A stretch of 64,000 nt of DNA from Enterobacteria phage phiC600P9. The notes under the pieces were generated by a model. The model saw only the letters and a program-made list of their open reading frames with translations. It was not told the origin of the DNA and ran no database searches. Shown here piece after piece: positions 26,990 through 28,330 of this stretch; the first letter of the stretch is position 1, and every line of letters begins with the position of its first letter. The stretch lies in sequence record MZ681930.1. One strand, written 5' to 3'. Position numbers and translations under genes: made by a program.

Positions 26990-27018
26990 AAAATAAAAAA
27001 GGACTCCCGAAGGAGTCC
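26990..27018 (-). terminator. Hairpin terminator downstream of the 30.9-like gene
   Basis: GGACTCC-cgaa-GGAGTCC; on the minus strand it is followed by TTTTTTATTTT. Confidence 0.7.
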
Positions 27019-27023
27019 TTAAC

Positions 27024-27200
27024 TTATGCTTTCTGCTTACCAAAACGAGAAGCATCATCTCGAAGAACCGCACGTGCTCGGCGCATGATCTTCTCAACAG
27101 TTTGATTGATACGAGAGTTCGACCCACGCTTGTAACCAGCGCGTTTAGAATCACCAACTTTCTTTTCAACTGCTTTCTTTGCTTTAGCTTGTTTTGCCAT
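27024..27200 (-). CDS. Small basic protein (T4 30.9 position)
   Basis: ORF track 27024..27242; likely start MAKQAKAKKAVEKK at 27200 (58 aa, Lys/Arg-rich). Confidence 0.55.
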   Translation of the reverse strand: MAKQAKAKKAVEKKVGDSKRAGYKRGSNSRINQTVEKIMRRARAVLRDDASRFGKQKA

Positions 27201-27242
27201 TATAAATTCTCTTTTAAATGAAAATGCAGGACTTATTGGCAT

Positions 27243-27598
27243 TGCCTGCGCAAGCCCTCACGGGGAACATAGGTTTTTGAATATTTAACGACCAGGATAA
27301 CCATAAACCCGTCATCATACCTTATAGCTCTTATCTGTTGCACACCGTTAGCTTAAAGGTTCCGGGTTCGATTTCTCGAGGATAAGATATATACTGATGG
27401 ATATATAGGCCTTGAGGCGTACTCCCGATTGGCCATCACCTCGGGGTAGCATGCACTTGCCGCTATAAGAATAACATTCAAGAGGTACACCGTAAAACTG
27501 CCGGGGTCTTAAAACTATAATGATTCGCAAATCATTAATCAGACAGTTCGACGGCTCCTCGATTTTAGCTCACACTAAGGCAGTGAATCTCCAATAAA
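27243..27598 (-). other. GC-elevated non-coding island between the 30.9-like gene and rIII
   Basis: About 355 bp with no convincing ORF; several local stems (CCCGA...TCGGG; TAATGATT-cgca-AATCATTA). Confidence 0.4.
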
Positions 27599-27847
27599 TT
27601 ACTTCAGTGTTACCACAAAGTGACGAACTGCTTTTCGTGCAGCAGAAGCCAGAGGCTTAGCATATTTAAGTTCATCTTTTTCCTGGAGCTCAGCAGCTAA
27701 TGCAGTTTGAGCAGGATTCAGATGTTTGAAATAACGCAGGATTTCAAGAGCTTCGGCTTCAACATCAATAGATGCGCCATAGTTTTCGTGACCATTATTC
27801 CATGCGTTTCGTTGCAGTTCAAGAGCGTGTTGTAATTGTTTAATCAT
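27599..27847 (-). CDS. rIII: Lysis inhibition accessory protein rIII
   Basis: 82 aa ORF, T4 rIII size and position. Confidence 0.85.
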   Translation of the reverse strand: MIKQLQHALELQRNAWNNGHENYGASIDVEAEALEILRYFKHLNPAQTALAAELQEKDELKYAKPLASAARKAVRHFVVTLK

Positions 27848-27994: not shown

Positions 27995-28330
27995 TCACTT
28001 ATAAAGACACGGAATAGCTTTATAGTGACAGGTAACGAATTTTTGTTTAATTTCTTTTGGCTGCTTAAGACCCAGAGCTACAAAAGGATGCGGAACGTTT
28101 CGAATTTGACCAACTGGAAGAGAAGTCAAATCACCAACTTCGCAGAAACCTTCAGGAACATCAGGACCAACAGAGTGAACTACACACAGTTCAGGAACTT
28201 CACCTTGAACACGTTTACCGATAATGAGTCCTGATTCTGTAACTTCTTCATCACCAGCTTGCGCAGGTTCAGAAACTAAAATAACATATTCACCGACAGC
28301 ACGAATTGGTAGCTGTTGTACTTCAGACAT
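27995..28330 (-). CDS. 31: Co-chaperonin gp31 (GroES analogue)
   Basis: 111 aa ORF, T4 gp31 length and position. Confidence 0.9.

Follow-up and report, generated by a model that had tools for sequence, protein, structure and literature searches.

Evidence for a structured RNA in the spacer between genes rIII and 30.9 of T4-like phages

What fills the long spacer between genes rIII and 30.9 of Enterobacteria phage phiC600P9 (MZ681930.1)? In the 64,000-nucleotide (nt) stretch of this T4-like (Tequatrovirus) genome analysed here, referred to as the window, the initial annotation had flagged a G+C-elevated non-coding island of about 355 bp at 27243-27598, and had proposed a structured non-coding RNA, a decayed remnant of a lost gene or mobile element, or a regulatory landing pad. 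The sequence and coordinates of this stretch had been given correctly, and the gap is real, although its true extent is 398 nt (27201-27598) because 30.9 starts with the ATG at 27200 (MAKQAK..., 58 amino acids (aa)), matching the T4 annotation; a 72-aa open reading frame (ORF) listed for 30.9 was rejected as overextended. The counterpart gap of T4 is 244 nt, an unusual length in so gene-dense a genome.

We have very little doubt that the core of this gap (27321-27469, minus strand) encodes a genuine structured RNA under selection. The first of the three proposals is strongly supported there by covariation across about ten phage genera, and the search for homologues and the alignment with relatives that had been suggested as a check brought out both a conserved island and the covariation described below.

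Covariation, strand and fold of the element

Distinct copies were collected from GenBank, IMG/VR and metagenomes and aligned in the minus-strand orientation, helices were derived from compensatory changes, and a covariance model (R1) was built from the deduced structure. This model retrieved 41 copies (34 distinct), among them the divergent one of phage fHe-Yen9-01 at 105 bits, and it found the element as a single copy in the window:

27321-27469, minus strand: the whole structured RNA, 149 nt, bounded by the two strands of P1 (R1, 187.7 bits, E value 1e-52)

Among the 34 distinct sequences, standard pairs occur in 97.5% of cells, and 28 of the 48 pairs have changed on both sides. None of 500 column shuffles reached any of the observed measures, and when the 3' partners were slid by 1-3 columns as a register control the pairing fell to 30-41%. 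The 34-sequence alignment was fitted to R1, which favours the model somewhat; a first count, on 23 sequences in a plain MAFFT alignment, gave the same picture. The parts of the fold, all on the minus strand, are as follows.

27462-27469, minus strand: P1 5' strand CUUAUAGC, closing the element and pairing with 27321-27328; compensatory changes in 6 of 7 modelled pairs
27321-27328, minus strand: P1 3' strand GCUAUAAG, pairing with 27462-27469
27459-27461, minus strand: Pa 5' strand GGC, pairing with GCC at 27408-27410; paired in 100% of cells
27450-27458, minus strand: internal-loop strand AAGUGCAUG, opposite CCUCAAG at 27411-27417; nearly invariant, without Watson-Crick covariation
27418-27449, minus strand: P6 hairpin with a 12-nt loop, its 9-bp stem interrupted by two single-nucleotide bulges; compensatory changes in 7 of 9 pairs, 99% of cells paired
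27433-27438, minus strand: UGAUGG in the P6 loop, kissing partner of CCAUCA at 27395-27400; 100% of cells paired
27388-27407, minus strand: P4 hairpin, 7 bp, with the loop CCAUCA (27395-27400), all 6 nt of which kiss; compensatory changes in 3 pairs
27381-27387, minus strand: P2 5' strand UCUUAUC, pairing with GAUAAGA at 27329-27335; 3 of 7 pairs covary
27368-27379, minus strand: P3 hairpin UCGA-GAAA-UCGA, 4 bp; 3 of 4 pairs covary
27342-27367, minus strand: P2b hairpin (ACCCG / CGG-U-GU), 5 bp plus a bulged U, with a nearly invariant 15-nt loop GAACCUUUAAGCUAA; 2 of 5 pairs covary
27336-27341, minus strand: junction strand GCAACA between P2b and P2; invariant in all 34 distinct sequences

Conservation of the sequence ends at the outer end of P1, and what P1 closes is a domain with an autonomous fold. 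P1, Pa, P4 and P2 abut without any unpaired linker, forming a four-way junction (gap-free given the Pa assignment), and P2 in turn encloses a three-way junction with P3 and P2b. The loops of P4 and P6 join in a 6-bp kissing helix, three columns of which covary (CG/UA; GC/AU/UA; GC/AU), and the concerted changes CCAUCG/CGAUGG, CCAUAG/CUAUGG and UCAUUG/CAAUGA were observed. Single sequences replace the closing U.G of P4 by C-G or U-A. In Pa, C-G becomes U-A in phage fHe-Yen9-01 and U.G in locus L100; in P2b, A-U becomes U-A in L042 and G-C becomes A-U in fHe-Yen9-01, and a separate, overall count scores four P2b pairs as invariant. The P2b loop of phage EcS1 has a 7-nt insertion, and the P3 loop is GAAA or GUAA in most sequences, mostly of the GNRA type, with UAAA or UAAU in some. 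About 70 of the roughly 150 positions are invariant across genera, concentrated in two junction or internal-loop regions, and by this conservation the internal loop AAGUGCAUG/CCUCAAG may be a functional site. Mutual information revealed no tertiary or Watson-Crick contacts beyond the modelled helices.

Two of the stems that had been picked out by hand fall within this fold. The CCCGA...TCGGG stem, placed at 27425-27446, was found at 27424-27445 and is helix P6. The sequence GCCTTGAGGC (27409-27418) is present as described; it does not form a hairpin and instead comprises one strand of Pa and part of the conserved internal loop. The corresponding GCC-UCAA-GGC hairpin (GCCTCAAGGC in the initial annotation), which we had modelled as a helix P5, is invariant and is broken in fHe-Yen9-01, and was replaced by Pa (GGC/GCC), with one covarying pair.

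On which strand does the RNA lie? The wobble cells of the modelled helices are 55 G.U and 0 A.C on the minus strand, and the P3 loop is a GNRA loop on that strand only; the RNA is therefore assigned to the minus strand and has the same sense as rIII and 30.9. A plus-strand RNA was considered, since RNAalifold energies are alike on both strands, but it was rejected because its wobbles would be A.C. Thermodynamic scores do not tell the strands apart, and when the single sequence is folded by itself its minimum free energy (MFE) z-scores, -0.9 for the plus and -1.5 for the minus strand, do not stand out.

These z-scores, together with the short hypothetical proteins that GenBank records place over the element, are what could be said for there being no functional RNA here at all, only the scar of a mobile element or a decayed gene, a signal at the DNA level, or chance hairpins in a G+C-rich spacer. 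We find this hardly credible. The compensatory changes, which include the loop-loop helix, speak against it, and the strand-specific G.U asymmetry is not something that a function of the double-stranded DNA can account for. Stops are present within the element in all six frames of all 34 distinct homologues. The intact protein gene in relatives that had been named as a counter-indication was accordingly looked for in these 34 sequences and no conserved open frame was found; neither was a recently disrupted one, and from record to record the annotated ORFs change strand and frame, so that a protein-coding gene or pseudogene was rejected. Conservation of the element also exceeds that of the adjacent gene: in 6 of 8 genera, identity to the window is 86-95% for the element and 76-80% for rIII. 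The proposal of a decayed remnant thus conflicts with the stops in all frames, with the compensatory substitutions and with conservation above rIII in six of the eight comparisons.

In the records examined, the element either has no annotation or is given as a short 'hypothetical protein', with no RNA annotation. Such coding sequences, on differing strands, overlie it in MK327945 (G4500_00226/00227), NC_031087 (kpv477_220), NC_048798 (gp203/gp204), NC_070779 and MT630408, and in phiC600P9 and other phages small neighbouring genes carry the label '1,4-alpha-glucan branching enzyme, GH-13-type'. Both kinds of label are probably annotation artefacts. In the window, the 60-aa ORF at 27348-27530 was described as the only one in the island; it is present (TTG start, minus strand), and ORFs of 45, 36, 34 and 25 aa also overlap. 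The G+C content of 27243-27598 is 44.1% compared with a window mean of 36.2%, a level reached by 2.7% of 356-nt windows, and 120-nt windows across 27360-27519 measure 46.7-47.5%, in agreement with the 45-47% first estimated by hand for the central 120 nt. Nearby coding stretches can equal the G+C content of the gap, for example 49% inside 30.9.

Several observations weigh against a selected RNA fold and should be set beside this evidence. The sequences represent only about nine independent lineages; Pa is thinly supported, with a single varying (covarying) pair; and the inner three pairs of P2 are invariant in all sequences. In the two most divergent members the element is no better conserved than rIII (both 76-80%), and recent horizontal spread, as opposed to constraint, could account for part of the high identity seen between genera.

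Distribution and setting of the element

Megablast against 50,697 phage records, with an 851-nt query that spans the gap and its flanks and is 100% identical to phiC600P9, showed that in T4 and many of its close relatives both flanks match while the central piece is missing, and that this central piece, of about 135-145 nt, is the sole match (91-96% identity) in other genera, which infect Klebsiella, Enterobacter and Edwardsiella. In an alignment with T4, KpV477 and PEi26, T4 lacks precisely the sequence corresponding to about 27319-27474 of the window, and in KpV477 and PEi26 the element has hardly changed, with flanks that are otherwise dissimilar. When the core by itself was used in a sensitive search, it was found in 404 phage records; the carriers span at least ten genera infecting Enterobacterales. 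The retrieved carriers belong to Tequatrovirus, Dhakavirus, Moonvirus, Jiaodavirus, Karamvirus, Kanagawavirus, Kagamiyamavirus, Marfavirus and Muldoonvirus, in addition to phage fHe-Yen9-01, and in every retrieved locus the element lies between homologues of 30.9 and rIII. In IMG/VR it is carried by 19 of 47 rIII loci, always just downstream of rIII, and 14 metagenome contigs carry it, most of them as large as T4-like genomes.

Outside these phages, the exact core pattern was absent from 185,579 bacterial and archaeal genomes, and blastn at E values up to 10 gave no match in 5,426 E. coli genomes. Loosened patterns in IMG/VR yielded only chance matches inside coding sequence (L151, L152), so candidate members outside T4-like phages were rejected, as were 50-odd matches of a 15-base pattern, which were attributed to chance and failed model R1. 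Loci also exist that encode an rIII protein 100% identical to that of the window and have no element. The element appears to represent a new family of RNAs found only in T4-like phages of Enterobacterales, in which it is an optional (accessory) allele.

At the insertion point (about 27318/27475), comparison of loci L101-L116, L118, L126, L132 and L143 showed three alleles in T4-group phages: an empty site of the T4 type, a cassette of about 55 nt, or the 149-nt element. The cassette, CUAUCACGCGUCAGAAAAAGGUUAUCUGUCUAAGUCGUGGUUGG, is a hairpin unrelated to the element with covarying stems of its own, such as CAGA/UCUG versus CAGC/GCUG, and a related form, GGCUCUAUGC...UAAGACUUAGAGCUC, occurs in other genera. 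In the relatives that have no element, no known RNA was found at its site, and the cassette has no Rfam match.

The surroundings of the insertion point are themselves modular, as the following features indicate.

27475-27598, minus strand: module M1, immediately downstream of the rIII stop and also found in T4; two stems, judged by eye to show compensatory changes in T4-group phages
27542-27548 and 27496-27502, minus strand: outer stem of M1, AACUGUC / GGCAGUU; AACUGUU/AACAGUU and AAUUGUC/GACAAUU in relatives
27518-27537, minus strand: inner hairpin of M1, UAAUGAUU-UGCG-AAUCAUUA; UAUCGAUU/AAUCGGUA in relatives
27276-27318, minus strand: module M3 (AUGAUG...GGUUAUCC...GUUAAAUAU), shared with T4 and present in most genera, on either side of the element
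27247-27270, minus strand: hairpin GUUCCCCGUGAGGGCUUGCG, shared with T4 and present in most genera, on either side of the element; its stem varies in a compensatory manner

The inner hairpin of M1 is the TAATGATT-cgca-AATCATTA stem pointed out initially, located here at 27518-27537, and proved to be a separate hairpin with its own covariation support. The order of the modules is not fixed. Relative to the shared GGUUAUCC module, the element is found towards 30.9 in Jiaodavirus, Kanagawavirus and Muldoonvirus and towards rIII in the T4 group, Kagamiyamavirus and Karamvirus, and the conserved GUACCCCUUGAGGGCUUG hairpin likewise changes sides between genera. In the loci read, 0-126 nt separate the rIII stop from P1, and the 30.9 start is about 100-170 nt away from the element. 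Taken as a whole, the spacer resembles a string of RNA modules that can be exchanged, and the proposed 'regulatory landing pad' was partly apt, in that the insertion point has three alternative alleles and the module order differs between genera.

The genes of this region are all on the minus strand: 31 (27995-28330), rIII (27599-27847) and 30.9 (27024-27200). The rIII/30.9 pair is adjacent even in phages that have no element. The 58-aa product of 30.9, with its very high content of lysine and arginine, has neither a Pfam family nor a solved relative in PDB, and its PHROG is one of unknown function. Directly after this gene lies a terminator:

26999-27020, minus strand: intrinsic terminator with a 9-bp G+C-rich stem, AAGGACUCC-UUCG-GGAGUCCUU, and a U run

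No sigma-70-like promoter was found in the rIII/30.9 gap, and no T4 late or middle promoter consensus was seen there by eye. Given the lack of a promoter of its own and the strong terminator after 30.9, we infer that the structured RNA is made as part of an rIII-30.9 transcript that ends at this terminator.

Known RNA classes and possible functions

Does the element belong to a known class of RNA? All 4227 covariance models of Rfam 15 were run, with E values up to 10 in the window and up to 5 in seven divergent homologues, and in none of these did a family overlap the element, which answers the covariance-model scan proposed at the outset. The only nearby matches are terminator look-alikes at the end of 30.9, where the UUCG tetraloop terminator at 26999-27020 is the source of sub-threshold matches to Atu_C8 and Phe_leader. 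ARAGORN found 0 tRNA or tmRNA genes in the whole window; a tRNA-like reading of the plus-strand string GGTTCGATT / GGTTCCGGGTTCGATT was accordingly rejected, this string being antisense to P3 and P2b. In the full-text literature no description of the element was found, where coverage of subscription journals is incomplete and an earlier description is possible.

In its architecture the element resembles large aptamers such as the lysine riboswitch (RF00168; also the cobalamin and SAM-I riboswitches). It shares with them a multi-helix junction closed by P1, invariant junction nucleotides and a location in a 5' untranslated region, and with the lysine riboswitch a 6-bp kissing of the loops of neighbouring arms, one of which has an internal loop that must bend. 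It differs from large aptamers in having no similarity to them in model or sequence, a four-way instead of a five-way junction, an extra three-way junction, no expression platform, a long and variable distance to the gene, an optional presence within a species-level group and a distribution limited to phages. A riboswitch-like or protein-operated cis regulator of 30.9, either a metabolite aptamer or an operator bound by gp30.9 in the manner of ribosomal-protein leaders, would fit the P1-closed, aptamer-like domain with its kissing loop and conserved junction nucleotides, the constant location in the 30.9 5' untranslated region, and the small lysine- and arginine-rich product without known function. 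Nevertheless, we regard such a regulator as improbable. No expression platform adjoins or overlaps P1: the gap contains no terminator, and no terminator or Shine-Dalgarno-sequestering hairpin covers P1 in any lineage. A switch acting through an adjoining terminator or ribosome-binding site is unlikely because the sequence from P1 to 30.9 is long (about 100-170 nt), variable and unrelated between genera. In some genera other modules separate the element from 30.9, and T4 and many other phages keep 30.9 without it.

Hammerhead, twister, pistol and hatchet ribozymes carried by phages behave in genomes much as this element does, and together with twister-sister they are, like it, sporadic, sense-oriented and position-free compact pseudoknotted modules with conserved cores. 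Might the element then be a new class of self-cleaving ribozyme, which would cut the rIII-30.9 transcript and uncouple the fates of the two mRNAs? The compact, P1-closed pseudoknotted fold in the sense orientation, the free position, the sporadic occurrence among relatives and the clustering of invariant nucleotides in the junctions are consistent with this, and we consider it not very likely on other grounds. No core signature is present, and none of the known self-cleaving cores (hammerhead, twister, twister-sister, pistol, hatchet, HDV-like, hairpin, VS, glmS) was matched in Rfam, even at E values up to 10. With 150 nt, about twice the usual size of phage-borne ribozymes, and about 70 invariant positions, the element is larger and more constrained than most self-cleaving classes, and a cleavage site cannot be inferred from it.

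A cis element without any diffusible partner is another explanation, and an unlikely one, in which the RNA would serve stability or form a roadblock to RNases, or would act like HK022 put in processive antitermination through the terminator after 30.9 into 30.8-30. The position is flexible and yet always in the same transcript, upstream of the terminator at 26999-27020, and the rest of the gap also consists of covarying hairpin modules, which suggests a region devoted to mRNA architecture. Against this, the four-way junction, the kissing loop and the roughly 70 invariant nucleotides far exceed what is found in stabiliser hairpins or put RNAs, and the same terminator and the genes beyond it are present in T4, which has no element.

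Two covarying complementary loops, here forming the 6-bp loop-loop helix, are also a property of the phi29 packaging RNA (pRNA, RF00044), which like the element is a phage-encoded structured RNA of similar size. The pRNA differs in having a three-way junction, loops that pair between molecules to give a ring on the portal, and its own promoter near the genome end; the element has a four-way junction and no similarity to RF00044 in Rfam, and its genome is T4-like, without a phi29-type motor. To our knowledge, T4-type packaging motors use no RNA. An oligomerising RNA in the style of phi29 pRNA or of ROOL and GOLLD, with a ring or cage as the functional form, is very improbable here. The two 6-nt loops are perfectly complementary and covary, and covariation is blind to whether pairing is within or between molecules; the arms are moreover unequal (7 bp versus 3 bp, an internal loop and 9 bp), so that intramolecular kissing would need a sharp bend. 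Yet the two arms sit side by side on a single four-way junction, as is usual for kissing within a molecule (the lysine riboswitch is an example), and T4-type packaging motors, as noted above, need no RNA.

The rnaC and rnaD RNAs of T4 (species 1 and 2) are, like the element, small RNAs of T4-type phages, of unknown function and produced within longer transcripts. They differ in lying in the tRNA cluster, in having tRNA-like ends and in being present in T4, which has no element, and homology was rejected: R1 with filters off scored at best 7.6 bits in T4 69000-75000, with no hit over rnaC or rnaD.

Double T-loop modules dock the tRNA elbow in the RNase P specificity domain, T-box stem I and the L1 stalk. 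The element has a pentad of the form AG..A, AGCUA (27350-27354, in the P2b loop), and one of the form UG..A, UGCAA (27338-27342, at the P2b/P2 junction), both nearly invariant, and the 10-mer GUGCAACAGA (27336-27345, minus strand) is identical in E. coli RNase P RNA (rnpB, L149), with a chance expectation of about 0.05. GAACCCGG and CAAGGCC also recur in that RNA. Pentads AG..A and UG..A are the signature of the double T-loop module, whose platforms are typically purine-purine pairs (PMC3664808, Table 1). In the element, however, the pentads are split by a 5-bp helix and the platforms would combine U with C; in the Rfam alignment of E. coli rnpB the 10-mer covers the P11 strand and runs into J11/12, a different structural context. 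Mimicry of the RNase P specificity domain was therefore rejected and is kept as a weak lead only.

We tentatively favour a partner-binding mechanism that does not depend on position. In this proposal the element would be a self-contained folded particle, a compact RNA that could bind a partner (a protein, a small molecule or another RNA) through its conserved junction pockets. The RNA would most probably persist as a stable species once the surrounding mRNA decays, and may give a conditional, host-dependent benefit, for example as a decoy or scaffold. A self-contained particle is suggested by a module that floats within the gap and has no adjacent expression platform, and a partner-binding or catalytic module is favoured over a classical riboswitch because the position varies relative to the neighbouring motifs and to both genes. 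It speaks against this preference that the element is without exception placed between the two genes, downstream of rIII and upstream of 30.9, by which a role in cis is still conceivable. Taken together, a selected structured RNA that is also a self-contained partner-binding module is the best overall explanation, and we would give it about an even chance of being correct. That the element represents a new functional class, either a new natural ribozyme or ligand sensor or an accessory counter-defence decoy or scaffold engaging a host factor through its invariant junction pockets, in the form of an optional cassette that recombines into and out of the spacer, is possible but doubtful.

The T4 group has been studied for seventy years and yet the element has no Rfam family; T4 itself happens to be without it. 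With its four-way junction, covarying kissing loop and some 70 invariant nucleotides, the fold is of the ribozyme, aptamer or ribonucleoprotein-scaffold type, not that of a simple regulatory hairpin. If the element only stabilises one mRNA, the wider significance would be modest. Its function is directly testable, because nature provides isogenic-like pairs of phages, with identical rIII and with or without the element, and because hosts and phages are easily handled. The finding also presents the rIII-30.9 spacer as a mosaic of exchangeable RNA modules, a kind of modular evolution that is usually described for phage genes and not for RNAs.

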